A stretch of DNA of 64,000 nt from Bacillota bacterium (GTDB lineage: Bacteria > Bacillota > Clostridia > Acetivibrionales > DSM-1351): the NCBI GenBank assembly GCA_023431385.1, contig JAEYWA010000153.1, forward strand, positions 7,272-71,271. The letters run 5' to 3'. Under the pieces are notes generated by a model, which saw nothing but the letters and a program-made list of their open reading frames with translations, was not told where the DNA came from and did not search any database. Shown one piece after another: positions 40,516-61,445 of this stretch (the stretch's first letter is position 1; every line of letters starts with the position of its first letter). The position numbers and the translations under genes were made by a program.

Positions 40516-40905
40516 TTACATTGTATAAGCTCTGTCTGTCTGCAGTATATGGTCAGAAATCCAGCTCACCACAAATTCAAGAATTTCCAGTAAATATTGC
40601 TCATGATCCATATCAATCTTTTCTAAATCTACACTGTTAATTTTTTCTATAAAATCATTATGTTCAACTTTATGGCTTAGTAACTTTCTATATCCTATAC
40701 TAGCCATATACTCTTCTTCAGATGTAAAATGAAAAACGGTATACTCCTTTAATTCGGCCAATAGTTTTAGTATACGGTCATACTTGTCAATGATAAGTTC
40801 ATTTTTCATAAGCTCATGAATCTCGCCAGCAATCTTGAATAATTCCTGATGTTGTTTGTCGATGTGTTCAATTCCCAGTAAATAATCATCTTTCCATGTA
40901 ATCAT
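40516..40905 (-). CDS. Bacteriohemerythrin-like protein
   Basis: ITWKDDYLLGIEHIDKQHQELF...H...FHFTSEEEYM...H..EH..F...H, the hemerythrin His/Glu ligand pattern. Confidence 0.85.
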   Translation of the reverse strand: MITWKDDYLLGIEHIDKQHQELFKIAGEIHELMKNELIIDKYDRILKLLAELKEYTVFHFTSEEEYMASIGYRKLLSHKVEHNDFIEKINSVDLEKIDMDHEQYLLEILEFVVSWISDHILQTDRAYTM

Positions 40906-41018: not shown

Positions 41019-42137
41019 CTAGTATTCGTTTTCAGCACTCCACAACTTTCTTTTACGTCTGTTTTTATGATCATACATTTTGAGATCTATTTCATGGATA
41101 AATTGCTCAAGACTCATATCGTTTTTATAAGTGTCATAGGCGCAGCTATACCTTAATAAATAGGGCTTCCCACAGCGTATATTGTATCTGTCAACCATTT
41201 TTGACATCTTTGAAATTAAATCATTGATTTTGGATACAGAAAGACCGTAAATTAATATGATAAATTCATCTCCGCCCAATCGGATAACTATACCATAATC
41301 AGAATACACCTTCTGAAGAAGCTTTGCAAAGGCTTTCAAAGCATGGTCACCCTCCATATGTCCATAGGAATCATTAATGTCTTTAAAATAATCCAAGTCA
41401 ATCATAATTGCTGATAATGTACCTTCATTCTTCCTAGAATAAGCATCCAGGCACTTTTTCAGCACCACCCTGTTTCTTGCCCCGGTAAGGGAGTCCCGGT
41501 ACAGATCTCTCTGCTGTATCACAATAAACATCATAATTATTGTAAAAGTACTGCTACACCATATAAACCTTACCTGACTCAAGCTTATCTGAAGAATTAC
41601 CATAATGTTGGTAACGATGCCTATAGCCATAATATATGCAAACTCAAACCTCAAGAGCATTTTCTTGTTTATAACTATTACATAAAGACTATAGGAAAGA
41701 AAAACAAGTGAAATAACCAGCCAAATTATATTTCGAGAAAAACTTCCAGCTTCTATTTTTCCGATTCTGGAGGCTACAAACGACGCTATTGTGTTAAATA
41801 TAAGTAATATATTAAATAAAGTTGTAATTGGCCTTTTTAATTTACAGGATGAGAGAAAATAGGAACAAATAAATTTAAGAAAGAAGTAAGACAGCAACGG
41901 TGAAAGGGAGTACAATGCAAAATTTATGACTCGTATCCATAATAACGCTATTTCTGCCTCCAACAGTATATTTTGCACCATCTCCAGATTTATTAATAAT
42001 AAATTCAGAAATAAGGAAGCAATATAGATTTTATTTATTTGCATTTTTTTATCCAGAACACTTAAAGCGTATATTCCAAAAAGGAATATAACTGCACCGG
42101 ATAAAATATTCATCTGTTGATGAAATAAAAACTGCAT
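41019..42137 (-). CDS. Membrane-bound diguanylate cyclase (active GGDEF)
   Basis: About 7 TM helices, then DSLTGARNR, IDLDYFKDINDSYGHMEGD and RLGGDEF. ATG 42137 follows AAGGAG. Confidence 0.85.
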   Translation of the reverse strand: MQFLFHQQMNILSGAVIFLFGIYALSVLDKKMQINKIYIASLFLNLLLINLEMVQNILLEAEIALLWIRVINFALYSLSPLLSYFFLKFICSYFLSSCKLKRPITTLFNILLIFNTIASFVASRIGKIEAGSFSRNIIWLVISLVFLSYSLYVIVINKKMLLRFEFAYIMAIGIVTNIMVILQISLSQVRFIWCSSTFTIIMMFIVIQQRDLYRDSLTGARNRVVLKKCLDAYSRKNEGTLSAIMIDLDYFKDINDSYGHMEGDHALKAFAKLLQKVYSDYGIVIRLGGDEFIILIYGLSVSKINDLISKMSKMVDRYNIRCGKPYLLRYSCAYDTYKNDMSLEQFIHEIDLKMYDHKNRRKRKLWSAENEY

Positions 42138-42293
42138 ATTTTTGCTCCTTATGTGCATTTTTCTGCATAAATATAATAACATTTTACATTATTTTTCAAA
42201 TTTATTCAAATAAATTATCGTTAGAATTTACCACTTAAGGGTATATTTATTATATATAGTTATGATGTCCTACGGTAAATGGAGGTTAATAGT

Positions 42294-43244
42294 ATGAAAA
42301 ATAAATCTATAAACAAAATAGCAGTAGTCGGAACCGGTTTTGTGGGCTCAACCACAGCCTATACACTTATGCTAAGTGGACTGATATCAGAACTGGTTCT
42401 TATCGATATTAATACAAAAAAGGCAGAGGGCGAAGCAATGGATATGAATCATGGTATGCCTTTTGTCAGGCCAGTTAAAATATATAGTGGAACTTATTCT
42501 GATTGCAGCGATGCAGATATTGTAGTAATAACCGGCGGAGCCAATCAAAAACCAGGTGAAACCAGAATGGATCTGGTTAATAAAAATACAGCCATTTTTA
42601 AAGATGTTGTTGGTAATATAGTCAAGTACAACACCGATTGTATCCTTCTTGTAGTAACAAACCCCGTGGATATTCTGACCTACGTTACATTTAAACTTTC
42701 AGGATTTCCCAAGAATAGGGTTATCGGTTCAGGTACTGTATTGGATTCAGCCCGCTTCAAATTCATGATAGGCGAACATATGGGCATCGATCCAAGAAAT
42801 GTCCATGCTTACATTATCGGTGAACACGGAGATACCGAAGTTCCGACCTGGAGTACTGCTTCAATCGCCGGATTATCCATGGACGATTATTGCATGGAAT
42901 GCAAATCCTGTGACAGCAGGAGCTTTAAGGAAACTACCTATAATAATGTAAAAAATGCGGCTTATGAAATCATCGACCGCAAGGGTGCAACCTATTATGC
43001 TGTTGCACTAGCTGTCAGAAGAATTGTCGAGGCCATAGTCCGTAACGAGAACTCAATATTGACAGTATCCAGCCTGCTGGAAGGTGAGTATGGATTAAAT
43101 GATATCTGTTTGAGCATTCCAAGTCAGGTCAATTCCAACGGTATTGAAAGAATTATTAATGTACCACTGAGTTCTGAAGAGACTGAACTCCTAAATAAGT
43201 CAGCTCAGTCTCTGAAAAAGGTTATTGATGGCTTGCATCTATAA
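42294..43244 (+). CDS. ldh: L-lactate dehydrogenase
   Basis: [45 protein letters not shown] 42294 lies 8 nt after GGAGG. Confidence 0.9.
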
Positions 43245-44303
43245 TAGAATTTTCTTTAAAATTGTATTGCTCCTTAAGAACTCTTTTGCCTTGTTTCTGT
43301 TTTCCTCAACGTGAATACAAGTGTACCTGTTCGGTTTGATGGAAGGAGCAATGTCAATTGCTTTTTCAAAAGCCTCAGCCTGCATGTTAAGTGTCGCAAC
43401 ATAATCAAAAAAGCCTGTATCACTCAGGAATTTTTCAACACGCTCAACCCTGTGCTGTTGAACAAGACTCATCAGATATGTTGCGACTCCTACCTGAATA
43501 CCGTGAAGCTGAGGCTTGTCAAGTATTTTGTCCAGAGCATGAGAGATAAGATGTTCGCTTCCGCTGGCAGGAGAGCTATTCCCTGCAATTTCCATAGCAA
43601 CACCGCTCATGGTTAGTGAATCCACCATTTCCTTAAGGAAAAATGGCTCTGTTATATTTGAATATGGCATGCGTACAATACTATTAACCGATTTCTTAGC
43701 CAGCATGGCAGCAAAATCATCAACCTTTGAAGCATTGTTCTTCTCTTCAAAGTACCAGTCATAAACAGCTGAAATCTTTGAAACTATATCTCCTAAGCCT
43801 GAGTAAATAAACTTTGCAGGAGCATTTTTTATTACATCCAGGTCAACTATAATTCCAAACGGCATTGCTGCATGAACCGAGGTTCTTTTTCCGTTAATAA
43901 TAAGCGAGCAGCCCGAGCTGGAAAATCCGTCATTTGAAGTTGACGTCGGTATACTGATAAAGGGTAAATTGTTCAAAAAAGCTATATACTTTGCGGTATC
44001 TAGTACCTTTCCTCCTCCCACACCCACCACAGCATCTGTTTTAGACGGTATGGAGAAGGCCTTGGGTACAAGTTTTTCAATGGTTATATCATCAAAGTCA
44101 TAGGTCTCAAGAAGTGTAAGTGATTTTCTGCTCTCGATTGAGGAAATTATTTTCTCACCAAATAATTCTCTTATACCTTCCCCAAACAGAATAATTACTC
44201 TTGAAATATTTGCTCTTTCCAGATATGAACCCACATTGCCCAATATTCCGGTGTTTACCTCCATTATGGTAGGAATTTCAATCCTGTGAATAGCTGTACC
44301 CAT
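43239..44303 (-). CDS. sn-Glycerol-1-phosphate dehydrogenase-like (AraM/EgsA family; iron-ADH / glycerol dehydrogenase superfamily)
   Basis: [25 protein letters not shown] and [11 protein letters not shown]. The PT..S.DG..S motif favours G1PDH over GldA. ATG 44303 follows AGGAG. The 3' end overlaps the convergent ldh by 6 nt. Confidence 0.6.
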
Positions 44304-44431
44304 AACAACTCCTATCTGCGTGCAGACTTCTATAAACTCTACACCAACTGATTTTGATTCTATGCAATTGGTCACCGGCCTTCCTGTAACTATTCCAAAC
44401 TTAATATTTCCCAGTCACTTTTTTCTGACCA

Positions 44432-45085
44432 CTATCCCAGCAAGCCCTTTGAGATCATATATTCCCCAACTTCGACATACCTGCTGAAGGGAACAAACGG
44501 AATACCTCGTTCAGCAAGAAGATTCTTAAGATCGTTCCTGGCAAAAGCGCAATCTGCTTCTTGTGCAGCACCTATATCCGGCTCGCTGTCCCCGGCAAAA
44601 TAAACCTTTTCATATTTTGCCTTGAGGGACAGTACAACTTTAGCCTTGTCAACCCCCCACATGCTGGAATAAAACTCGCTCTGAGAATCCGGCATTATGG
44701 TAATGCCTCTGTTGCAATACTTTCCTTCCATTGATATAACAGTTACATTATCTATTTTATGATGTGCAAGGAGTTTTTCTATATAATATGATGTTCCGGC
44801 ACTTAATATATAAAAATCTCCTCCGCAGTCTTCAACCTTTTTTATAAATTCTATGGCATATGGATCCAGCGGAAGCTCGAGAATATCCTGAAAAATTTCC
44901 TCCTCGTTTCTGTCCATGGAACCGAATATTTCATTGAGAAAATCCACATTTATTTTTTTAGTTTTCTTCCATTCATAATAATATTCCCAGGCCCAATCCT
45001 TTAAATACTTATCCATAACAATATGGTAAAAGTCTCTGTCTGTCAGTGTTCCGTCAAAATCAGATACAAATGCAAATTTTTTCAT
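44432..45085 (-). CDS. HAD-IB phosphatase (MtnX / phosphoserine phosphatase-like)
   Basis: FVSDFDGTLTDRDF (motif I), ILSAG (motif II), AGDSEPDIGAAQEADCAFAR (motif IV). ATG 45085 follows GGGAGA; in-frame ATG 45097 is the alternative. Confidence 0.75.
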   Translation of the reverse strand: MKKFAFVSDFDGTLTDRDFYHIVMDKYLKDWAWEYYYEWKKTKKINVDFLNEIFGSMDRNEEEIFQDILELPLDPYAIEFIKKVEDCGGDFYILSAGTSYYIEKLLAHHKIDNVTVISMEGKYCNRGITIMPDSQSEFYSSMWGVDKAKVVLSLKAKYEKVYFAGDSEPDIGAAQEADCAFARNDLKNLLAERGIPFVPFSRYVEVGEYMISKGLLG

Positions 45086-45209
45086 ATTATCTCCCATCTA
45101 AGCGCATAGCGCGTACACAAATAGTAGTGAAAAGACATGTACTGGCTTTTTGCATGCGTGAAAATCATGATGACTTACCACATGTTTTTTTCACGCTATT
45201 CTCCTATAT
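45086..45209 (-). promoter_or_regulatory. Conserved 5' leader, copy A (candidate riboswitch, attenuator or operator)
   Basis: The RNA-sense sequence aligns end to end with copy B at 61267-61381. Shared blocks: GGAGA(A)TAGCGTGAAAAA, GTA(A)GTCA, TTTCACGCA, GCAAAAA, TACG(C/T)GCT(A/C)TGCGC, TAGATGGG(A/T)G(A/C)TAATATG. It contains the hairpin GCGTGAAAA-N23-TTTTCACGC. Confidence 0.55.
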
Positions 45210-52099: not shown

Positions 52100-54319
52100 T
52101 CAATTGGGCTTTTTCTGCCTCATTCTCAGTATTATAAGAATCATTGCGAGAAAAAGTACAATCATTACAGATGTTCCTGCCAGTGCAAATAACAGAGAGG
52201 TTCTGTTCTCCATTACGCTTTCTTTCAGAGTCGGCTTCTTTTCCTTAAGTTCTTCCCTTTGAAACTGATAGGACTTTATATCGCCTTTACTGTCTATTAA
52301 AACGAAATCATTATTAAGGTTCCAGCTCAATTTTTCATTGCTTACAAGCTTTGTTACTCTACTAATTGACTTATCATCGGGTCCGGTCAAGACCAGCAAC
52401 GCCCTTCCCTCAGCATAGGGCGACTTCAGAAGCTGAAGGGTTCCGATGGAGCCTGCGTAATCAGAAGTTAATATTAGTTTTTCATTGGTTACAAATTCGG
52501 TGAAGCTGCTGTTATATTTGAAATACAGCTTATCGTTGAGCTTTGTTATAAGACTGTTTTTCGCAGGAATTCCTGCAGTAATGATATTATAATTTGCTTC
52601 AGTCTCATTAAACTCACTAGCCTTAACCACCTTTAACCGTCCATAAGCATCAGCTGAACGGGAATAAAGCGATAGCATTCTACCAACTAAAGACAGCTCA
52701 GCCAGGTCAGGATCATCTGATAATACCAGCATAACATCATTCAGGCTGCCCTCCTTTTGAAATGGTGCCGGCCTGCTGTTAAAACTCAACTTTGTACTAT
52801 TGTCTGCCGGGAGATATAATGTAGAATTCTTTGTAATATATGCCCATGGCATCTCCTCCTGTCGAGTAGTACAAAATAGCTCCGGTATTTCAAGATCAAA
52901 AGCAAATTTTATACTGCTGGAATATGTCCCCACAACATCAGCCGGCATAAAGAAAGTCAGTTCGTCATTATCAGCATTTTCAAATGCCAGTTTTTTACTT
53001 CCTACGGGAACATCCCCCCAATAAACAGTCAGCATGGATCGTTTGAAATCCAGGTTTTTACTGTACCTGAAGTTTACAGTAACCTTACTGGCTGAAGATA
53101 GCGTATAATCGGTAGGCACAGGTAAAAACAAAGTCTTTTCCTGCCTGAAAGGTCCGATGAAATCAAATCCGCCCCCGGTCATTTCCTGAAGTGTATACCT
53201 GTCGGCTTTCAAATCACTTTGCTTTTTTGAGTTAAGCTTCATTTCGGCGGTGCCCTTTTTTATTAATGTGATATTATCCGTCTCCTGGGCTATGCGTTCA
53301 CTGTCTCCAAGAAAATACCCAGCTTCGACAAGGCAGTCAGCATCCTGAGAAGTAACAATCAGCAGGGGATTACCAGATGCATCCGTTACAAATAAAATCA
53401 AAACCTGGTCTTTTAATTGATTTTTGTGAGGCTCTATGTAATTGATAACCTCATAGGGCAAATTGCTGGTCAGTCCTACCAGAATTCTGCCGGAACTTTC
53501 TATGTTCTGGGCCTCTTCCCATGAACTGATTGTGATGTTATTGCTTTCACTGGTATTCTTGCTCAACCCAGCCATAAGCATCATCGCAGTTGCCACTTCT
53601 TCGTTCTGTTTAGAGTTGGCAACAGTAACAACGGTGTCCGCCCCAGTCTTATTGTTGGTAGACATAAATGGGTAAGGATAATAATTAATTCTGTTATTAT
53701 GAGGCAGCATATTATACCCCACTTCTACTCCCGAGGTCTCAGAAAAGGTCAGCCAGTTTGCATTGCTCTCCTCGTCTATACAGCCCTTCTCATTATACAA
53801 CTTGGCATAGCCGGATATGGTAAGAGTGTTTGCACTGCTCTCCTTATCATTTTTCAGCAGTTCCATAGGGATGGTAACATATATATAATTCTTCTCACTG
53901 TTTTCATAAGTAATATTACAGGAATAAAAAGGCTGCTTATTAATTGAAAATGTAAGAGTGCAGGGTATTTTCCCCATCAACTGGCTCACTCTGTATTCAA
54001 GCTGTACGCAAACGTATTTAGTATCCCAGTACCTCGGTATGTTAAAGTACAACTCGGTTGAAGAGTATATCCCTTTCAGAATTTGGGGTGAATTCCAAGT
54101 AAAATCACCGGTCAGTTCAGCCTTTGGAAGCTGTGGTTTAGCCTTTTGGGGATTGCCTGGGTTTTCAAGCATGCTGTTTACGCTGGAAAGCAGTGCCTCC
54201 TCAGAAGTAATAGTGCTTTTATCTCCGACCGCACAAACATTCTGTAGCCAGCTTAAGGACATAGTTACAGCAAGGATAATTACAAAAGCTCTGAGAAATT
54301 TACTTTTTCTTGTTATCAT
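52100..54319 (-). CDS. BcsB/YdaN/PssD-like extracytoplasmic EPS-synthase subunit
   Basis: N-terminal signal/anchor, a ~680-aa extracytoplasmic body and a single C-terminal TM helix (LLFALAGTSVMIVLFLAMILIIL). It overlaps the 3' end of the GT2 gene by 20 nt. The call rests on architecture and synteny, not on a motif. Confidence 0.5.
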   Translation of the reverse strand: MITRKSKFLRAFVIILAVTMSLSWLQNVCAVGDKSTITSEEALLSSVNSMLENPGNPQKAKPQLPKAELTGDFTWNSPQILKGIYSSTELYFNIPRYWDTKYVCVQLEYRVSQLMGKIPCTLTFSINKQPFYSCNITYENSEKNYIYVTIPMELLKNDKESSANTLTISGYAKLYNEKGCIDEESNANWLTFSETSGVEVGYNMLPHNNRINYYPYPFMSTNNKTGADTVVTVANSKQNEEVATAMMLMAGLSKNTSESNNITISSWEEAQNIESSGRILVGLTSNLPYEVINYIEPHKNQLKDQVLILFVTDASGNPLLIVTSQDADCLVEAGYFLGDSERIAQETDNITLIKKGTAEMKLNSKKQSDLKADRYTLQEMTGGGFDFIGPFRQEKTLFLPVPTDYTLSSASKVTVNFRYSKNLDFKRSMLTVYWGDVPVGSKKLAFENADNDELTFFMPADVVGTYSSSIKFAFDLEIPELFCTTRQEEMPWAYITKNSTLYLPADNSTKLSFNSRPAPFQKEGSLNDVMLVLSDDPDLAELSLVGRMLSLYSRSADAYGRLKVVKASEFNETEANYNIITAGIPAKNSLITKLNDKLYFKYNSSFTEFVTNEKLILTSDYAGSIGTLQLLKSPYAEGRALLVLTGPDDKSISRVTKLVSNEKLSWNLNNDFVLIDSKGDIKSYQFQREELKEKKPTLKESVMENRTSLLFALAGTSVMIVLFLAMILIILRMRQKKPN

Positions 54320-55601
54320 CAGTTATCGCCCCCGATTCATTATTAGTTTCCATAGATCGTTCAGTTTTATACCACTTAACTTCCCGTTTGAAAATTGCGT
54401 CGTTGGCGCTTTGTATTATAGCATTCAGTACAACTATCACCCAAAGCTTCGAGTAGGTAAAAAGCATCAGAAGAATCAGCAGTGCCGATCGAATATTAAA
54501 TTCGTTCTTTTCAATAGCAAGAGTTATTAATACGTTCAATACAAATACCAGTATTGCCATTATCCATAATGTACTGGAAAATCCACCGAGGGTTACATGA
54601 GTAAAACCCAGTATGGAAAGTATAAATATCAAATCTGAACACACGAGGGAGGTGAGCATCAAAATATAAACCAGCCCGTAGTATAGCACGTCCAGTCTCA
54701 TGGGACCTGCAGTTCTGTCAAAGACATATTTGAAATTCTCCTTGAGTACATAAATATTACCCTTAGCCCATCTTGTTCTCTGTTTGAGCCATATACGCAG
54801 CAGCTGTGGTTCCTGTTCCCAGGTTACTGCCAGAGGCATAAGCTTGATCCTATAACCCATTCTATATATTCTAAAGCTTATTTCGGTATCTTCAGACAAG
54901 GCTTTTGTGTCCCACCCGCCGATACTCTCTATTATACTTCGGCGTACAACAAAGTTGGTTCCTGGTATGGTACATAGTTTAAAGAAAAACCATCTTCCTG
55001 CCTGGTTCATACATTGATATGCCAGTGTTTCAATATTGACAAAGCGGGTTATTAGTGAAGCGTTTCTGTTTCTGGTTCTAAACTTTCCTATTACTGCCCC
55101 CAGCTTATCATCTGCCATCAGATTTTCCACCAGTAAAGTAAGTGCATTGGGCTCGGGTGTATTATCGGCATCATAAATAGCAATTACACTTCCGGTGCTG
55201 ACCGAGAAACCGATATTAAGAGCATTTGACTTTCCTTTACCTCCAGAAACACTATCTGTATTAATTACAATAAGTTTTCTGTCAGGATTTTTCACTTGTA
55301 TGTTCTTCAGCACTTCGGCCGAGTCATCAGAAGAATTATCATTGATAACAATAATCTCATATTTATCCTTAGGATAGTCAAGATTCAGAAGTGCCTGAAC
55401 AGTTTTTCTGATTACTATGCTCTCATTGTGTGCCGGCACCATAATTGATACCATTGGATACTCCCTAAGCGGTATTCGGCCGTCTGTACGGTTCACCCTT
55501 ATGTAATAAATAAATCCGCCGATAGACAAAACAACATTAATCAGCGTAAGCCCCCAAATAGCAATTAAAGCATATAGTGATAATATATCTGCCAGTGTCA
55601 A
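54300..55601 (-). CDS. Processive family-2 glycosyltransferase (YdaM/PssC/PgaC-like EPS synthase)
   Basis: VSIMVPAHNE, VINDNSSDD, YDADN (DxD), GTNFVV, SEDTE and QRTRWAKGN (QxxRW), with flanking TM helices. Confidence 0.85.
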   Translation of the reverse strand: MTLADILSLYALIAIWGLTLINVVLSIGGFIYYIRVNRTDGRIPLREYPMVSIMVPAHNESIVIRKTVQALLNLDYPKDKYEIIVINDNSSDDSAEVLKNIQVKNPDRKLIVINTDSVSGGKGKSNALNIGFSVSTGSVIAIYDADNTPEPNALTLLVENLMADDKLGAVIGKFRTRNRNASLITRFVNIETLAYQCMNQAGRWFFFKLCTIPGTNFVVRRSIIESIGGWDTKALSEDTEISFRIYRMGYRIKLMPLAVTWEQEPQLLRIWLKQRTRWAKGNIYVLKENFKYVFDRTAGPMRLDVLYYGLVYILMLTSLVCSDLIFILSILGFTHVTLGGFSSTLWIMAILVFVLNVLITLAIEKNEFNIRSALLILLMLFTYSKLWVIVVLNAIIQSANDAIFKREVKWYKTERSMETNNESGAITDDNKKK

Positions 55602-57220
55602 TCTGCATCACCTCCATCCGAATTTCCCTCTGAAGTCCTTTTGTATAGAAATCTTCGCCGATTTTGATAACGTGCAACGAATATAAAAAAAACAAAAATT
55701 ACCGAAATAAAAGTTACAATTAATAAAAGTCTCCGGTTTTCACGGGCCATACTCTCAGCCATTTTTCCTATAATGCCTCTGTTAAAGTTGAAATCCGCCT
55801 CATAATTAAAAGGCTTGAATTCCAACGATTGTATCTTCCCGTTTACAGTAAGGATTCCGTCCTTTAGACTAACAACCCGGTCATTGGTGTAGACAGTTTG
55901 TGTAGTAAGCCATAAACTCTTCAATGATATCTCTGATTGCTGGATCTGTTTAATTTTATTTTCCAGCATATCATTATCTGTATTTATATCCAGAAACAAC
56001 GCAGTAGGATAGGCTTTAATCATATTACTGCTCAAACTCGAATTACTGAGAATCGCAGGGGCAATAAGATGATGTCCGTCTGAATAAACGGTATTGTAGC
56101 CATCAGCATCAGTCCAACTGTTTTTTTTCTCAGGATATAGAATTACGGTACTGAACCTTTTTAATACGTCCAGTCCTAGGCTTTCGTGTATCCAGTTATT
56201 TGGCGCCTCAATAGCAATAGGATATACACCGTAATTGTTATACGCAGTTATTGCTGTAGTAATTTTCTGATTTATATCTTCAAGTGAAGGTTTTTCAGTG
56301 TTTATCAGCGGTGCTTTCAGTATAATGCTTACTCCCTTTGACTGAGCATAGGCAAGTACCTCACAGAAGTGTTTCATAGCAGGGTACTCGGTATTTTGAT
56401 AAACCGGCATAACAGTAATTGAATAAGGTACACCCTTTTTATCCATCAGCTGCACTGCCTGCATGAGCTTTTCGCCGCTGAAAAACGGGTACACATTATC
56501 AAAGATGATGTATTGGGGATAGCTGTTCGGCTGGTTCTCAAAGGGCCATTTCCATATTGAAATCTGCTCTGAAAAAGCGGCCTTTAAAATATCACTTTCA
56601 TTATCAAAAACTCCCATGCAACTGAAACGTCCGTCTCTCACAAACAACGGAGAGCTTTTGCCGGTTGCTTCGATATGGCCTGCTCTGTAAGGGAACCCCT
56701 CCTGGAACATTATTGCGTTTTCAGCCTTTATCAAAGCAGTTGATGCTCCCCCACGACCAACATCATAAGATACCCTTACTGTAGTATCCTTAACCTTTAA
56801 AGAAGTATAATCCAGTTTTAACGACTTAAGTACATCATCAGTACTTCCGCCACCAACCATCATTATTTTAATATCAGCATTTTCCAATGCTTTCAAAAAG
56901 GATGAATTAATGCTATCACTTTCATGGTAAAACAGAAGGCTATCGAATTTATCCAGTATATCGCTACTATCGTTTACAGTTCTGTAGCTTGTCCCATAAC
57001 CCATATAAGTCAAAATGTCTGCCATTGCAGCAACATTCTCTTTACCTTTTGGGGATAAATCCTCATCATAAATAAACAAAATATCTTTTCCTTTTATGGT
57101 TTCGTCCACAGCAGAAACAGTTTTAGCTGGAAAAAACATTGTTATCGCCATGAAAATAAGTAAAATTAATATTAAAGGAATTTTGTTAATTCTAAACTTT
57201 CCACAGTGCTTAAACATCAT
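55598..57220 (-). CDS. YdaL-position extracytoplasmic protein with a C-terminal TM anchor, function unknown
   Basis: Signal peptide MMFKHCGKFRINKIPLILILLIFMAITMFFPAKTVSA and a C-terminal helix LLLIVTFISVIFVFFIFV. The start is trimmed to 57220; the longer ORF overlaps the upstream gene by 146 nt. Confidence 0.4.
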   Translation of the reverse strand: MMFKHCGKFRINKIPLILILLIFMAITMFFPAKTVSAVDETIKGKDILFIYDEDLSPKGKENVAAMADILTYMGYGTSYRTVNDSSDILDKFDSLLFYHESDSINSSFLKALENADIKIMMVGGGSTDDVLKSLKLDYTSLKVKDTTVRVSYDVGRGGASTALIKAENAIMFQEGFPYRAGHIEATGKSSPLFVRDGRFSCMGVFDNESDILKAAFSEQISIWKWPFENQPNSYPQYIIFDNVYPFFSGEKLMQAVQLMDKKGVPYSITVMPVYQNTEYPAMKHFCEVLAYAQSKGVSIILKAPLINTEKPSLEDINQKITTAITAYNNYGVYPIAIEAPNNWIHESLGLDVLKRFSTVILYPEKKNSWTDADGYNTVYSDGHHLIAPAILSNSSLSSNMIKAYPTALFLDINTDNDMLENKIKQIQQSEISLKSLWLTTQTVYTNDRVVSLKDGILTVNGKIQSLEFKPFNYEADFNFNRGIIGKMAESMARENRRLLLIVTFISVIFVFFIFVARYQNRRRFLYKRTSEGNSDGGDAD

Positions 57221-58067
57221 ACTGTAATTCCTTCTCAACACTCTGCTTAAAAAAGGCAGTATCATTTCCAATCTCTTCCTTGTACTGAAGGAAAGCAATC
57301 TGAACCTCAACCTTGATGGAGGTATCTGTAATACCGTCAAATGCACCTTTTTCACCTACCATTGATCTGATTCTGTTCCGAACCAGCTCACCGCCGCTTT
57401 CATCACAAGTCAGTATAATTGCAAGACTGCCGTCATTATCTATACTGTACTGGTTGTCCTCTATCCTGATAGCATCACCTATAATCTCAGCTAGTCGCTG
57501 CTTGAGCTTATCAAAATTTTTCTTGGTTAGTATTTTTTTTAGTTCCTGACCATAGCGCAGTTTTATTATCATCAACGTTAAAGGCAGCTGATTTCTTCTG
57601 GTATATCTTATCTGCCTGTCTATGTCGTAATAAAAGCTTCTCAGATTATATAGACCTGTGAGAGGATCTATTAATACCAGTTCCTCTACCTGTTGTCTCA
57701 GCATGCTGTTTTCCAATTCCAGCCGGTTACGTCCCGAAATAAACAGCTTCATTGTACCGACTATGACAAGGGGAAGTATCAGCCAAGCAAAAGAGTAAAT
57801 ATTAATAGCCGTCCCTTTTTCATATAGTATAAACAGTTTATAAGCCGAATAGCAGATAATTTGAGAGCCAACCACCACTAATGCTGCAAAGTCCATTGAA
57901 AAAGTCACAAGTATTACTGCAATAACTGTTACAAATAACATCACTGAATTTTCAATCAGCAAGCCTGAACCACCTGCATATAAAACCCCCATACTACCAA
58001 TCAACGACATTAAAAACAGTAGTAAGCCAACATCCTGAATTAATATTTCATAGCGTTTATTAGGCAT
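57210..58067 (-). CDS. Membrane protein with a degenerate GGDEF domain that keeps an RxxD I-site (YdaK/PssE-like c-di-GMP receptor)
   Basis: About 4 N-terminal TM helices. The GGDEF-fold start DPLTGLYNLRSF is present. The catalytic motif is replaced by DNDGS (aa 210-214), and the D.D/FK.iND motif is absent. RIED (aa 201-204) lies exactly 5 residues upstream, which is the I-site position. Confidence 0.7.
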   Translation of the reverse strand: MPNKRYEILIQDVGLLLFLMSLIGSMGVLYAGGSGLLIENSVMLFVTVIAVILVTFSMDFAALVVVGSQIICYSAYKLFILYEKGTAINIYSFAWLILPLVIVGTMKLFISGRNRLELENSMLRQQVEELVLIDPLTGLYNLRSFYYDIDRQIRYTRRNQLPLTLMIIKLRYGQELKKILTKKNFDKLKQRLAEIIGDAIRIEDNQYSIDNDGSLAIILTCDESGGELVRNRIRSMVGEKGAFDGITDTSIKVEVQIAFLQYKEEIGNDTAFFKQSVEKELQYDV

Positions 58068-58090
58068 TATAACCTCCGTATTACGAGTAT

Positions 58091-59617
58091 TTATAATATT
58101 CTAAGCTTGTGAATCAATTCTGCTAAAATAAAATATATCAGAATATCCAGAGAAACACTAAAAAGGAAAAGATGCCTGACCATTTCAGTATCTCCACTAT
58201 TTACTATAGTAATTACAGCATTCGATATTCCAATCATTAATATTGCAAGCATGGTTTCCAGAGGTATTGCTCCTCTCGAATCATAATCTCTAAAAAGTCT
58301 AGCCGACTTCTGTCTGAACAGTAGTATGACTGCTGAAAGCAGAACCACAAGAAACCCAATGGTTTTCGGTATTGAATCAGCTTTAAATCTACTCCAGAGG
58401 GACCATAAAATACTTTTTGCCATTTTTGGCATTCCGGCACTCTTTTCATAGTTTCCACTGAAATCCCTTCTAATATTAAAAGTTGCTTTGACTGATATAT
58501 CGAGCATTGCAACCAATGACCCAGGATGTTTTAAATAGTAGTAAGCTATTTCTGCTGAATTGTAATTGTCATAGAAGCCTTGATTTAAGTCCTTATTATC
58601 AGGTTTTAACAGCGGATACTGATCGTTACTGTTTGTATCTGTTAGTATTGAATAGGAACTATCAATACCAAATTCCTTCAAAGTCTCCTCCGGATCAGTA
58701 GACTGAAGCAATACACCTCTGGACATAGCATGGTACTTACTTGACTCACTGAAGGAAGCAGGAGAATACCTCAATGAGAACATGACGCTTAGGAATAGAG
58801 CAAGTACTGCAGTACAACAACATATCTTCCATAACAGGTTTTTATTTAGAAAAATAAACTTTACACCTAATATTCCCAAAATCAAGCCTACTATAGCATA
58901 TTTAACTTCTATCGTAGTCAGTATGATCCCAAACAAAGAATACAAAATAACATAAGCAAAATTTTGCTTTTTCTGTTGTAAAGCTAACGCTGCTCCAGAG
59001 CAAAAAAGCAATGAAATAAACACCAGCGGTTCAGTATAAAAGGAACTGAAATAGGTAATATACGATACATCTGCAAAGATAAATATGCCAGTCAGCCCAA
59101 TGACAATACTTTCAGTAAATGTCATTGCCCTTTGTAATGCCTGCTTAATAACTAAAAAAACTGCCGGAATATACAGGAACCCATATAGTAAAGCTAAAAA
59201 TCTCAAATCAAATGTGCTGTCACGGGTAATAAACGTATCAAGCCATTTTGCCATGAAAACCAGAATTCGTTGTCCTGTCAGATTTGCCAAGCTACTCCCT
59301 TCCGCTGCCAGGGATAGATAGTCCTTGACATAGTAATTGAAGTAAAGGTTTTCACTGGAATCCTCTCTGTGATATATCCCTGCTGGATTCATCCTGGAGG
59401 AAAAAGAGCCATCATCAGACATTCCAAGTACAGGAGGTACAAATAGCATGATTATAAGCAGCATCAGGGATATCAAACAGGCCCCTAAGGCTACAACATT
59501 TGCAGAATACTTACCTTCCCTGTTTTGGTTTAATACGGTTATATTTTTTTTAAGGAAGGAAGTTAATCTATTTATTTTTGTAACTATAAATCGTAAAATA
59601 TTCCATTCTTTTTTCAT
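58091..59617 (-). CDS. Polytopic membrane protein of unknown function within the EPS operon
   Basis: More than 10 hydrophobic segments and no recognised motif. Co-directional, 23 nt from the next gene. Confidence 0.45.
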   Translation of the reverse strand: MKKEWNILRFIVTKINRLTSFLKKNITVLNQNREGKYSANVVALGACLISLMLLIIMLFVPPVLGMSDDGSFSSRMNPAGIYHREDSSENLYFNYYVKDYLSLAAEGSSLANLTGQRILVFMAKWLDTFITRDSTFDLRFLALLYGFLYIPAVFLVIKQALQRAMTFTESIVIGLTGIFIFADVSYITYFSSFYTEPLVFISLLFCSGAALALQQKKQNFAYVILYSLFGIILTTIEVKYAIVGLILGILGVKFIFLNKNLLWKICCCTAVLALFLSVMFSLRYSPASFSESSKYHAMSRGVLLQSTDPEETLKEFGIDSSYSILTDTNSNDQYPLLKPDNKDLNQGFYDNYNSAEIAYYYLKHPGSLVAMLDISVKATFNIRRDFSGNYEKSAGMPKMAKSILWSLWSRFKADSIPKTIGFLVVLLSAVILLFRQKSARLFRDYDSRGAIPLETMLAILMIGISNAVITIVNSGDTEMVRHLFLFSVSLDILIYFILAELIHKLRIL

Positions 59618-59637
59618 TATTCTTTATCATATCCATG

Positions 59638-61266
59638 TTAATATTTATTTTTATCAGCAACACTATACGAAAGAAGTCCAATACACTGGTCGAAGGAATA
59701 TATCCCGGTTCCGTCTGTGTTTCCAAACGCACCGTTCAGTTTATTATCAAAATCAAAAATCCTCATTGTTTCCATTCTTGCCATAGCCCTGTTTGCCAAA
59801 TCACTATCTCCCACATTGTTGGCTATCATACTAACCAGTCCGTAAATGGCAGTGGATTCATATCTGTACCCGTCCACTACTGTTCCGTCAGGCCTATACA
59901 TGGCGAAAATACCTTCCCCTTCAACAGCTGCCTTCAGCCAACTCAACGTCTGGGGCTTTATTTGTCCTATTTTTGAGAGGTGCAAAAGGGTAACCATCCC
60001 CTCTGCCATATTTAAATTTTCATTTTTATAGCTTTTCTTCCTGTAATCATATTCGGTATGGTACATTGGGAATTCGTCTCCTAAATAACCATCATTCACA
60101 ATTAAGAGACTGTTCCGGTTGACCTCATTCCACCGGGGATCTATTTCTGCCAGCATTTCCATAGCCTCAAAGTCAGCAAAGCACAGTTTTAAGCTCTGAG
60201 ACTTCTTTCGGTACTTAAAATCATAGGAGTTTATGAGTTTATTACTCTGGGTATTATACCGATACAGAGCATTTTCATAGTTTTTCAAGTTATCGGTATA
60301 TCCTCCCCACAATTTATCTGCATTATAAAGTGTTCTGAAAATCCGAAGATCATCTACAGACGAATTGACTCTGGCTGGTCCCTTTTCGTTTACTACCCAC
60401 GAGGCCAAAGGGTCCTTCCTCATTACTTTATTTATATAACTAATGCTTTTTTCAAATAAGCTTCTATTTGATGAATTGATGGCATATTCTAGAATAAGCC
60501 CCTGTGATTCACTCAAAACATCTGTATTTTCTAGATTTGATGCCTCTTCGGTTATATAGTTGGTCTTTATTCCTCCATCAGCATTTGTCAATTCATTTTC
60601 GATAAACTTTAAAGTTCCAGAAGCTCCTCCGGTAATACCATAATCAATCATAGACTTCAGTCCTTTAAGAGGTAACTCCTTGCCCGCATACCATGCTCTA
60701 AGGATACCTTGTTTATCAATTACAAAAGTTGTGGGAATAACCTTAAGTCCCAGCTGCTTGTATACTGTCAGATTTTCATCAAAAACATTAACAAAGGGTA
60801 TTTTTTTATCTTTCAAGTACGCTAGTGCTGAAGCTCTGGTCTCCTTGTAATTATCCAGTTTATTTACAAGAAGGAACTCGACTCCCGGATACTCTGAAAG
60901 AATTTTTTCTATCTCTTCATATTTTTCCAATTCCTTGTTGCAATAAGGACACCAGCTTGCCCAGAAGCTAATTACAATTGTTTTTCCCTTTAGTTCGGAT
61001 AAAGTTATTTTATCTCCGTTTTCTCTGGAAAAGGACAGGTTTGATAAATCAGTATTGAGGGTACATTTCTCTGGTAGTAGGTCCATGTTGTTTGAAAGTT
61101 GTGTATCTGCGGTTGTATTAGTTTTCTGTCCGGTTGTCTGAGAATCCGAGTATTCATTTGTCTTGCTTTTAGAAAGCAGCCATGCTGTAATAAGGCTTAC
61201 TGACACGGCTAGCATAACTATTAATAATATTCGTACTATTCTTTCCATTTTATTTAAAGAACGCAT
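59638..61266 (-). CDS. Membrane-anchored fusion of a TlpA/thioredoxin-like domain and a GH8 glycoside hydrolase (YdaJ/PssZ/BcsZ-like)
   Basis: TM anchor. Thioredoxin fold with ISFWASWCPYCNKE (CxxC). GH8 hallmarks are SESQGLILEYA (catalytic Glu context, SEGQ-like) and SSVDDLRIFRTLYNADKLW (GH8 signature region). ATG 61266 follows GGGTG; in-frame ATG 61278 is the alternative. Confidence 0.65.
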   Translation of the reverse strand: MRSLNKMERIVRILLIVMLAVSVSLITAWLLSKSKTNEYSDSQTTGQKTNTTADTQLSNNMDLLPEKCTLNTDLSNLSFSRENGDKITLSELKGKTIVISFWASWCPYCNKELEKYEEIEKILSEYPGVEFLLVNKLDNYKETRASALAYLKDKKIPFVNVFDENLTVYKQLGLKVIPTTFVIDKQGILRAWYAGKELPLKGLKSMIDYGITGGASGTLKFIENELTNADGGIKTNYITEEASNLENTDVLSESQGLILEYAINSSNRSLFEKSISYINKVMRKDPLASWVVNEKGPARVNSSVDDLRIFRTLYNADKLWGGYTDNLKNYENALYRYNTQSNKLINSYDFKYRKKSQSLKLCFADFEAMEMLAEIDPRWNEVNRNSLLIVNDGYLGDEFPMYHTEYDYRKKSYKNENLNMAEGMVTLLHLSKIGQIKPQTLSWLKAAVEGEGIFAMYRPDGTVVDGYRYESTAIYGLVSMIANNVGDSDLANRAMARMETMRIFDFDNKLNGAFGNTDGTGIYSFDQCIGLLSYSVADKNKY

Positions 61267-61381
61267 ATTAGCACCCATCTACGCGCAGAGCACGTATAAA
61301 AAAGTAATAAAAAGCCGCTTAGCGGGTTTTTGCTGCGTGAAATGCACGCTGACTACAAAATGTATTTTTCACGCTATCTCC
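61267..61381 (-). promoter_or_regulatory. Conserved 5' leader, copy B (candidate riboswitch, attenuator or operator)
   Basis: Aligns with copy A (45086-45209). It contains GCGTGAAA-N24-TTTCACGC, an alternative GCGTG-catttc-ACGC pairing, a terminator-like AAAAACCCGC-TAA-GCGGCTTTTT, and the hairpin CGTGC-TCT-GCGCG just 5' of the Shine-Dalgarno sequence. Confidence 0.55.
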
Positions 61382-61410
61382 ATATAAGCTTTCCTGATCA
61401 TTTCTTTCAA
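61382..61410 (-). promoter_or_regulatory. Sigma-A-type promoter driving leader B and the EPS operon
   Basis: Minus strand reads TTGAAA (61410..61405), a 17-nt spacer, then TTATAT (61387..61382). Confidence 0.5.
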
Positions 61411-61445
61411 AACCAATACCCTTACGTGAAAATATATGGTATCTT

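Follow-up and report, generated by a model that had tools for sequence, protein, structure and literature searches.

Two unrelated clostridial operons share a leader that is probably a repeated element inserted at ribosome-binding sites

In a 64,000-nt stretch of a Bacillota bacterium genome (assembly GCA_023431385.1, contig JAEYWA010000153.1, positions 7,272 to 71,271; hereafter the window), two operons encoding unrelated proteins begin with a similar leader of ~120 nt. We consider it probable that these leaders are independent insertions of a small, non-coding, non-autonomous, repeated mobile element which targets ribosome-binding sites, and that the operons share sequence because each independently acquired a copy. 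The leaders belong to a repeat family with strict placement and orientation, which is present or absent at orthologous sites with clean junctions, occurs in tandem arrays, and precedes unrelated host genes.

The shared leader is a non-coding element present twice in the window

Copy A (109 nt, AGCGTGAAAAAAACATG to TTAGATGGGAGAT) lies at 45089..45197 on the minus strand, within the ribosome-binding site of a HAD-phosphatase gene, and copy B (106 nt, AGCGTGAAAAATACATT to CGTAGATGGGTGCT) lies at 61270..61375, also on the minus strand, between an open reading frame (ORF) of 591 aa and a gene encoding a redoxin/GH8 protein. A check of the window sequence found both copies as quoted in the initial annotation, which had described two collinear leaders conserved as far as the start codon. 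Alignment with MAFFT confirmed this description: identity extends from AGCGTGAAA through the ATG, is 76% over the element proper (76-79% over ~107 nt), and is at background level on both sides. The boundaries of the copies were refined by comparison with empty sites, using the L071 site and the clean insertion pairs L040/L088 described below. A pattern built on 24 nt of the 3' block and a gapped hairpin pattern each matched these two places only, with no matches expected from shuffled sequence, and these pattern searches found no third copy within the 64-kb window.

The proteins encoded downstream are unrelated, as first noted (a HAD phosphatase and Fe-ADH_2 for copy A, redoxin/GH8 for copy B), and the leader is indeed a non-coding cis-element rather than the product of a gene duplication. 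A coding element is ruled out by the ORF that begins at a GTG or TTG near the 5' end, which spans from 3 to 37 or more codons, encodes no conserved peptide, and shifts frame between copies through single-base insertions and deletions. The initial annotation had also matched the leader to no riboswitch consensus, and this held when Rfam covariance models were run: there was no match at gathering score in the whole window, and nothing relevant at E<=10 for both copies, a copy from the second group described below, and a triple tandem array.

The element belongs to a repeat family with two groups

We scanned species-representative genomes with the pattern GCGTGAAA-N20-42-TTTCACGC-N0-3-GCAAAA. As this pattern demands an intact 5' hairpin (P1) together with GCAAAA, divergent members are under-sampled. 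The scan returned 64 loci, ~40 of them true homologues that fell into two groups, and true copies were confined to the taxa of these groups. Group 1, from Ruminiclostridium hungatei, R. cellobioparum, its subsp. termitidis and several Bacillota metagenome-assembled genomes (MAGs), resembles the window copies. The window organism is itself a Ruminiclostridium species, absent from the protein collection searched, in which the best match to its HAD protein is 90% identical. Group 2, from Oscillospiraceae/Eubacteriales MAGs, has the same 5' hairpin and 3' end, with the second hairpin (P2) enlarged to a three-way junction. Element length is ~107-110 nt in Ruminiclostridium and ~150 nt in the sister lineage. 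Chance matches to the pattern in Bacteroidota, including Dyadobacter (L038 5966-6421, L030, L048), proved to be ~130-nt tandem repeats with TTTGCGTGAAA...TTTCACGCAAAG inverted repeats.

A profile search of the fetched loci with nhmmer recovered additional, tandem and truncated copies. These included tandem doublets and one triplet (L054), truncated relics in L019 and L076, and a variant with an extra hairpin before the Shine-Dalgarno (SD) sequence in L049, L076 and L019. The extra module, TATCAAAGCCACT-(T)NCA-GTGGCT(T)GGG, folds into a hairpin overlapping the SD and is found at the 3' end of certain copies and relics (L049 ~2040-2075; L076 1305-1340; L019 6590-6640, minus strand).

The two window copies represent different subfamilies, each closer to copies at other sites elsewhere than to the other. 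Identity is 87% between copy A and a copy that precedes a VanX-like gene of another genome, and 93-94% between copy B and the copies that precede three other genes; subfamilies cut across genomes. In the MAG OH_HBB_241, members of a near-identical 'TTG' subfamily (93-96% identity) lie immediately 5' of older resident copies at three loci, and R. hungatei carries a single copy at two of those three, namely those with a fetched orthologue (L010, L018). Copies are also retained at orthologous sites in several species, before pgsA in five genomes and before def in three.

Empty orthologous sites define the ends of the element

Searching relatives for further copies, as the initial annotation had proposed, was productive in that ~32 sites were found, but the sites orthologous to those of the window were mostly empty. 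The initial annotation had named a lack of conservation in related genomes as grounds for refuting its reading, and such a lack is what these sites show. The HAD locus lacks the element in six orthologous loci (L065, L068, L069, L071, L072 and L074). Three of them are in metagenome assemblies, and the others come from R. cellobioparum subsp. termitidis, R. hungatei and GCA_003208175. L071, one of the metagenome assemblies, has a fully syntenic HAD locus with 90% protein identity. It matches the window base for base through GGAGAAT, which contains the host SD core GGAG found in the window at 45201..45204 (minus strand), 6 nt 5' of the element GTG. In L071 this sequence is followed by TAGT-ATG-AAAAAATTTGCA, where the window instead holds the 109 nt of copy A. 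The site of copy B, in the exopolysaccharide (EPS) operon, is empty in L077 and L078, filled as in the window in L002, and occupied in L076 by a copy that is truncated at its 5' end and belongs to a different subfamily. At an ArsA-like junction, L076 has the element and L077 a plain ATGA stop/start overlap.

The cleanest pairs came from comparison of the sister MAG OH_HBB_241 (L040) with R. hungatei (L088), whose FlhF proteins are 94% identical. In R. hungatei the flhA-flhF and fliP-fliQ junctions both read ...GGAGGTT^AAAATG..., whereas in L040 both read GGAGGTT, then the element from AGCGTGAAAG to GATGGGAGAT, then AA(A/G)ATG. These junctions are exact to the base, with no deletion and no duplicated bases save an ambiguous single A. 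The flagellar pairs therefore define the element as AGCGTGAAA...GATGGGAGAT, and its target as a point 2 nt past the SD core and 3 nt before the ATG. A model with a TA dinucleotide as target fitted the right junction of one pair only and failed elsewhere.

Two further inserts were seen at flagellar sites. A different 166-nt insert, predicted to fold very stably (-62.5 kcal/mol), occupies the same fliP-fliQ site in L090 (5495-5660). It begins AGCTTGAAAGAC and ends ACATGGAGGTT, with an unrelated interior and no second copy in the fetched loci, and this single instance may hint at a broader set of inserts that have their termini in common. In OH_CDB_54 (L089 9875-10000), a ~110-nt insert in the flhA-flhF spacer contains GTCTTTTTATTACAATTT, which resembles the tract that follows P2, and the insert may be a decayed relic.

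The element is placed exclusively in sense at ribosome-binding sites of unrelated genes

At every one of the ~32 distinct insertion sites the element is in the sense orientation relative to the next gene. Its 3' end falls 3-5 nt short of the start codon, from which its terminal motif, GATGGGAG in group 1 and AATGGAG in group 2, is separated by 5-10 nt. A single partial exception, L010/L052, is followed by a 5-codon ORF and a terminator-like hairpin, with a histidine-kinase gene beyond them. Nearly every copy is preceded by a variable, host-like SD, 5-8 nt 5' of the element GTG (TTG in one subfamily).

Tabulating the downstream genes, another check proposed at the outset, gave no functional coherence by Pfam. 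Host genes encode Obg, PgsA, FliQ, FlhF, a SpoIIAB-like kinase, SpoIID, YqfD, SpoIIE, Def, TrkA and PhoH, as well as dCMP deaminase, a D-Ala-D-Ala carboxypeptidase (DacB), a VanX-like peptidase, prepilin peptidase, two sugar ABC permeases and glycoside hydrolases. Their functions range over translation, lipid synthesis, flagella, sporulation, transport, cell wall and nucleotide metabolism, with no coherent set. Many copies are intercistronic, with an upstream ORF on the same strand whose stop codon either lies 7-20 nt 5' of the element or is the TGA within the element's GTGA. Because the host genes are unrelated and many copies are intercistronic, the family does not mark a metabolite-specific regulon.

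Element anatomy comprises three hairpins and a terminal Shine-Dalgarno sequence

The 5' end of the element, (T)AGC-GTG-AAA, places a start codon at the former position of the host ATG, with TAG and TGA in the other two frames. This start codon lies in the 5' arm of P1, a hairpin of 8-9 bp whose apical region is wholly different between groups 1 and 2. P2 has a base formed by an A-run and a U-run, carries at least four alternative apical stems (CCGC/GCGG, CAC/GTG, CAT/ATG, ACA/TGT), and is followed by a conserved TTTCAY tract, for which both the P1 5' arm and the SD are possible pairing partners. The third hairpin, P3, is a GC-rich stem of 5-7 bp that ends 11 nt from the right end, and the last bases of the element are its SD. 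Inverted repeats are internal only (P1, P2 and P3). Terminal inverted repeats are absent, and the ends AGCGTGAAA and GATGGGAGAT are not complementary.

Both hairpins that the initial annotation had described, one at the 5' end and a small GC hairpin abutting the SD, were located in both window copies. In copy A (all minus strand), P1 spans 45156..45196 (GCGTGAAAA / TTTTCACGC), with arms at 45188-45196 and 45156-45164 (GCGTGAAA(A) / (T)TTTCACGC), a 23-nt apical region, and the GTG codon in its 5' arm. This GTG opens a short upstream ORF (45165..45194, MKKTCGKSS*), whose length and sequence are not conserved among copies. P2 (45130..45151) has the A-run/U-run base and a weak apical CA/TG, and on its 3' side TTTCAC offers alternative pairing with the P1 5' arm or the element SD. 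P3 (45100..45114) is ACGCGC-TAT-GCGCTT, with one C-U mismatch. The element-supplied SD, GGGAG (45091..45095), would now serve the HAD gene, whose true start codon is the ATG at 45085-45083. In copy B (also minus strand), an SD-like GGAG (61378..61381) lies 5 nt 5' of the GTG. P1 spans 61335..61374 (GCGTGAAA / TTTCACGC, arms 61367-61374 and 61335-61342), P2 spans 61309..61331 (AAAAAcCCGC-TAA-GCGGcTTTTT) and has a terminator-like shape, and P3 spans 61281..61295 (ACGTGC-TCT-GCGCGT) with the single G-U pair previously claimed for it. The SD-like GGGTG supplied by the element (61272..61276) precedes the redoxin/GH8 gene, whose true start codon is the ATG at 61266-61264. Promoter and terminator scans around both copies were uninformative, and no terminator passed the filter, though P2 of copy B looks like one.

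Covariation was tested in an unbiased MAFFT alignment of 23 group-1 copies, against 500 shuffles and slid controls. P1 was 100% paired in the 23 copies, with one double change from G-C to U-A (GTG to TTG). P3 was 89% paired, with two pairs changed on both sides. Variants of P3 include ACGCAC/GTGCGT, GCGTGC/GCACGC and CTGCCGC/GCGGCAG in place of ACGCGC/GCGCGT. Paired cells and covariation exceeded all 500 shuffles and all slid controls, but the independent events were few. Both the G-U pairs in P3 and the strict strandedness of the element indicate a structure formed by a single strand, whether of RNA or of DNA.

The ORF opened by the GTG or TTG varies in length. In about half of the group-1 copies it runs for 28-37 codons and stops at, or a few nt from, the SD or ATG of the gene, whereas in the most recently amplified subfamily and nearly all group-2 copies it has 4-9 codons and ends inside P1. 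Partition-function estimates gave the SD a predicted mean unpaired probability of 0.29-0.41, a weak indication that it is occluded to some degree. Predicted SD access fell, and did not rise, when the P1 5' arm was masked.

Candidate signals within the element were also considered. Comparison by eye with sigma-70 and sigma-F/G/E/K consensus sequences gave no convincing fit to an internal promoter, and a match of GGAGATAATA to the sigma-F -10 consensus would start transcription inside the gene. The 5' TAGCGTG is identical to the last 7 nt of the E. coli ops element, which we take to be a coincidence, as the element is not specific to polysaccharide operons.

A permuted ribosome-binding site could insert without disrupting translation

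The element is effectively a circularly permuted ribosome-binding site, which starts with a spacer and start codon (AGC-GTG/TTG-AAA) and ends with its own SD (GATGGGAGAT). We propose that it enters in the sense orientation, ~2 nt past the SD core and ~3 nt short of the start codon of its host gene. After insertion the host SD would drive a short, non-conserved, throw-away upstream ORF, while the element SD, together with the last spacer bases and ATG of the host, would translate the gene. TAG and TGA in the other frames would terminate an upstream gene reading into the element. The element would be co-transcribed and largely 'translationally transparent', with insertions expected to be non-polar even at coupled junctions. 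Pairing of the U-rich tract UCUUUCAU with the element SD may dampen or couple translation.

Both this effect on expression and the mode of spread are what we infer from sequence comparison. Spread may occur through a single strand, in the manner of IS200/IS605 (HUH) elements, or by template switching from one ribosome-binding site to another, and either this or short-homology recombination between such sites would yield the same junctions. We suggest such spread because there are no terminal repeats or target duplication, the orientation is fixed, the hairpins are sub-terminal, and the right end ATGGGAGAT mimics the left flank of the target ATGGAGGTT. Among known mechanisms, single-strand transposition of the IS200/IS605 type would fit best. 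Palindrome-associated transposable elements (PATEs) derived from this family are moved as single strands by a Y1 HUH transposase. They are likewise small and non-coding, without terminal inverted repeats or target-site duplication, fixed in orientation, with hairpins near the ends, and they insert immediately 3' of a short sequence resembling their own right end, with junctions exact to the base. The foot of the right-end hairpin of IS608 lies ~10 nt from the end, compared with ~11 nt here.

Several results weigh against insertion of a mobile element, or against this route for it. Neither a transposase nor an autonomous parent that has these ends turned up in the ~900 kb of loci examined. The end hairpins of IS200/IS605 elements usually form a similar pair, but here P1 (GCGTGAAA/TTTCACGC, with a long loop) and P3 (ACGCGC-TAT-GCGCGT) differ both in sequence and in shape; P3 has a closer likeness in P2, which is internal. 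Cleavage at the left end would fall only 1 nt from P1. In place of a fixed tetra- or pentanucleotide the left flank is SD-like, the target being an SD plus 2 nt; flanks end in ...GGTT, GAAT, GATT, CATT, GAGT or GTAT, nearly always with a T and with an SD before it, which amounts to a loose G-R-W-T. Two of the five filled/empty pairs (HAD and L076/L077) need extra changes within the 3-7 nt spacer rather than a simple insertion, which may just reflect divergence between the species; in two pairs the species have diverged too far for an exact reading of the junction. Covariation support is modest, as the copies are so similar. No copies were found in viral contigs, plasmids or phages, which give no evidence on a vector, and a scan of JGI metagenomes with a degenerate pattern designed to sample P1 covariation returned only nine chance hits and no element. 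Finally, strict conservation of the hairpins and retention at orthologous sites would also fit a selected regulatory function.

We suggest, more tentatively than the insertion history itself, that this could be a previously undescribed kind of mobile element targeting ribosome-binding sites: a permuted cassette of ~110-150 nt that splits the host site, regenerates two working halves, and colonises even essential coupled junctions without polarity. Such a cassette might move by an HUH mechanism or by site-to-site template switching, and might be co-opted to tune translation.

Regulatory explanations account less well for the distribution of the element

The initial annotation had taken the leader as a regulatory link between the two operons, in the form of a riboswitch, a sensor of cyclic di-GMP (c-di-GMP) or an operator. 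This link was not supported, since the host genes are unrelated and the two window copies belong to different subfamilies, and we disfavour a selected regulatory role, whether as a riboswitch-like switch or as translational coupling, as the reason for the sharing. A genuine cis-regulatory RNA would be a riboswitch or a leader bound by a protein or small RNA, copied before many genes that answer to one common signal, with P1-P3 as sensor and a platform switching access to the SD. Maintenance of three hairpins in two divergent lineages with some compensatory changes, the three-way junction of group 2, and the ability of the TTTCAY tract to pair with the P1 5' arm or the SD would all be expected of such an RNA, as would the retained orthologous copies, and the tandem copies resemble tandem riboswitches. 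We nevertheless regard this as unlikely. There is no Rfam match, the hosts are functionally incoherent and include many mid-operon housekeeping genes, and the element is absent at orthologous loci of close relatives. The apical region of P1 differs between groups, leaving no conserved ligand pocket evident, and intragenomic copies are 90-96% identical including the 'platform', which is typical of repeats and not of riboswitch paralogues. Similarly, riboswitches and other 5'-leader regulators such as the c-di-GMP-I/II classes are structured sense RNAs before a start codon, sometimes in tandem and with possible SD-sequestering pairing, but the element differs from them in having no model match or coherent regulon, no conservation at orthologous loci, and near-identical copies within a genome.

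An attenuator based on a leader peptide or on translational coupling (as in erm/cat or in bicistronic design, BCD), in which translation of the short ORF unfolds P2, P3 and the anti-SD pairing and the gene depends on upstream translation, is in our view somewhat less likely again. It would explain why an SD and a GTG or TTG are found at the 5' side of almost every copy, why the sole covariation in P1 (GTG to TTG) keeps a start codon, and why about half of the group-1 ORFs, at 28-37 codons, stop near the gene SD or ATG; the low predicted accessibility of the SD is also consistent with it. However, an ORF of 3 to 37 or more codons, with an unconserved peptide and shifting frame, leaves no conserved stalling leader peptide, and the 4-9 codon ORFs of the newest subfamily and nearly all of group 2 end in P1. 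The upstream SD is host sequence outside the element, and masking the P1 5' arm has the opposite of the expected effect on predicted SD access. A switch based on SD sequestration is disfavoured, as the partition-function estimates, which are thermodynamic predictions, gave a weak signal that ran opposite to what a coupling model expects. Synthetic BCD cassettes and natural coupled leader cistrons do share with about half of the group-1 copies the order of SD1, short ORF, SD2 at the ORF end, and gene, but the ORF of the element is not conserved and often has 4-9 codons, so the likeness is a functional analogy only. We think it very improbable that the inverted repeat GCGTGAAA-N23-TTTCACGC is a DNA operator at which a dimeric transcription factor co-represses both operons. 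The repeat is a perfect 8-9 bp in all copies, but the centres of its half-sites are separated by ~40 bp, copies occur within operons, remote from promoters and directly over ribosome-binding sites, and orthologous promoters lack the element; strict strand specificity and the G-U pairs of P3 again point to a single-strand structure.

Insertion of a repeated mobile element remains our preferred explanation, and other families of small repeats share only some features of this one. A literature search did not find such an element described. Classical miniature inverted-repeat transposable elements (MITEs) derived from DDE transposons are also small, non-coding, multi-copy, and present or absent at orthologous sites, but the element has neither terminal inverted repeats nor target-site duplication. 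Repeats such as ERIC/IRU, BOX, RUP, Correia/CREE, REP/BIME and bcr1 of Bacillus cereus resemble it in size (100-150 nt), in occurring in several to many copies per genome, in being transcribed intergenic sequences with RNA hairpins, and in varying in presence between relatives. They differ in being found in both orientations and at varied distances from genes, and most have terminal inverted repeats and target duplications (TA, TTTAT). To our knowledge, none of them has been described as splitting the spacer between SD and start codon and regenerating a ribosome-binding site, and exclusive placement at ribosome-binding sites with an element-supplied SD is no described feature of the IS200/IS605 family.

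For annotation, leader identity between unrelated operons reflects insertion history here and is no basis for inferring a regulon or riboswitch. If our explanation is true, a selfish element that lands with single-base precision and brings replacement signals for translation would have an unusual means of remaining harmless in essential operons, and it would be a natural counterpart of engineered bicistronic translation cassettes. The family provides a way to follow changes in the translation initiation regions of cellulolytic Clostridia.

Host genes and neighbouring sequence in the window

Copy A precedes a gene for a HAD-IB (MtnX-like) phosphatase (44432..45085, minus strand), with a Fe-ADH_2 / glycerol-1-phosphate-dehydrogenase-like gene (43239-44375, minus strand) on its 3' side. 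Directly 3' of this pair lie genes for a GGDEF diguanylate cyclase (41019-42182, minus strand) and a hemerythrin (40516-40905, minus strand), an arrangement kept in relatives. These two genes are unconnected to the element and may have prompted the c-di-GMP idea.

Copy B precedes the first gene of a polysaccharide cluster, which encodes the redoxin (TlpA-like) and GH8-like protein (59638..61266, minus strand). The cluster continues downstream (52100-59617, minus strand) with genes for a degenerate GGDEF protein, DUF2334, GT2 and BcsB. As a whole (52100-61266, minus strand) this is a Bcs-like EPS operon that is syntenic and conserved among Ruminiclostridium relatives. It encodes the TlpA-type redoxin fused to GH8 (BcsZ-like), a YfdI_N-like 508-aa protein, the degenerate GGDEF protein (possibly a receptor for c-di-GMP), DUF2334, a GT2 synthase and BcsB. 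A stretch of ~70 nt (61376-61445, minus strand) separates copy B from the stop codon of the 591-aa ORF and starts AAGAT...ATATTTTCACG. This start resembles that of the truncated L076 copy at the same site before the two diverge, and the stretch may be what is left of an earlier insertion.

GC skew of the plus strand is negative across the window (1-64000; -0.05 to -0.22), and the minus strand, which bears both copies and most genes, is probably the leading strand. Both copies thus lie on the G-rich strand, and gene orientation confounds any replication-strand bias.

The element also affects gene calling, as it creates small upstream ORFs and shifts apparent starts. An in-frame ATG within TAGATGGGAG (45097-45095) was mistaken by ORF callers for the start of the HAD gene, and in L076 (1212-1601) a 129-aa gene call begins at the element GTG, 130 nt upstream of the real ATG.

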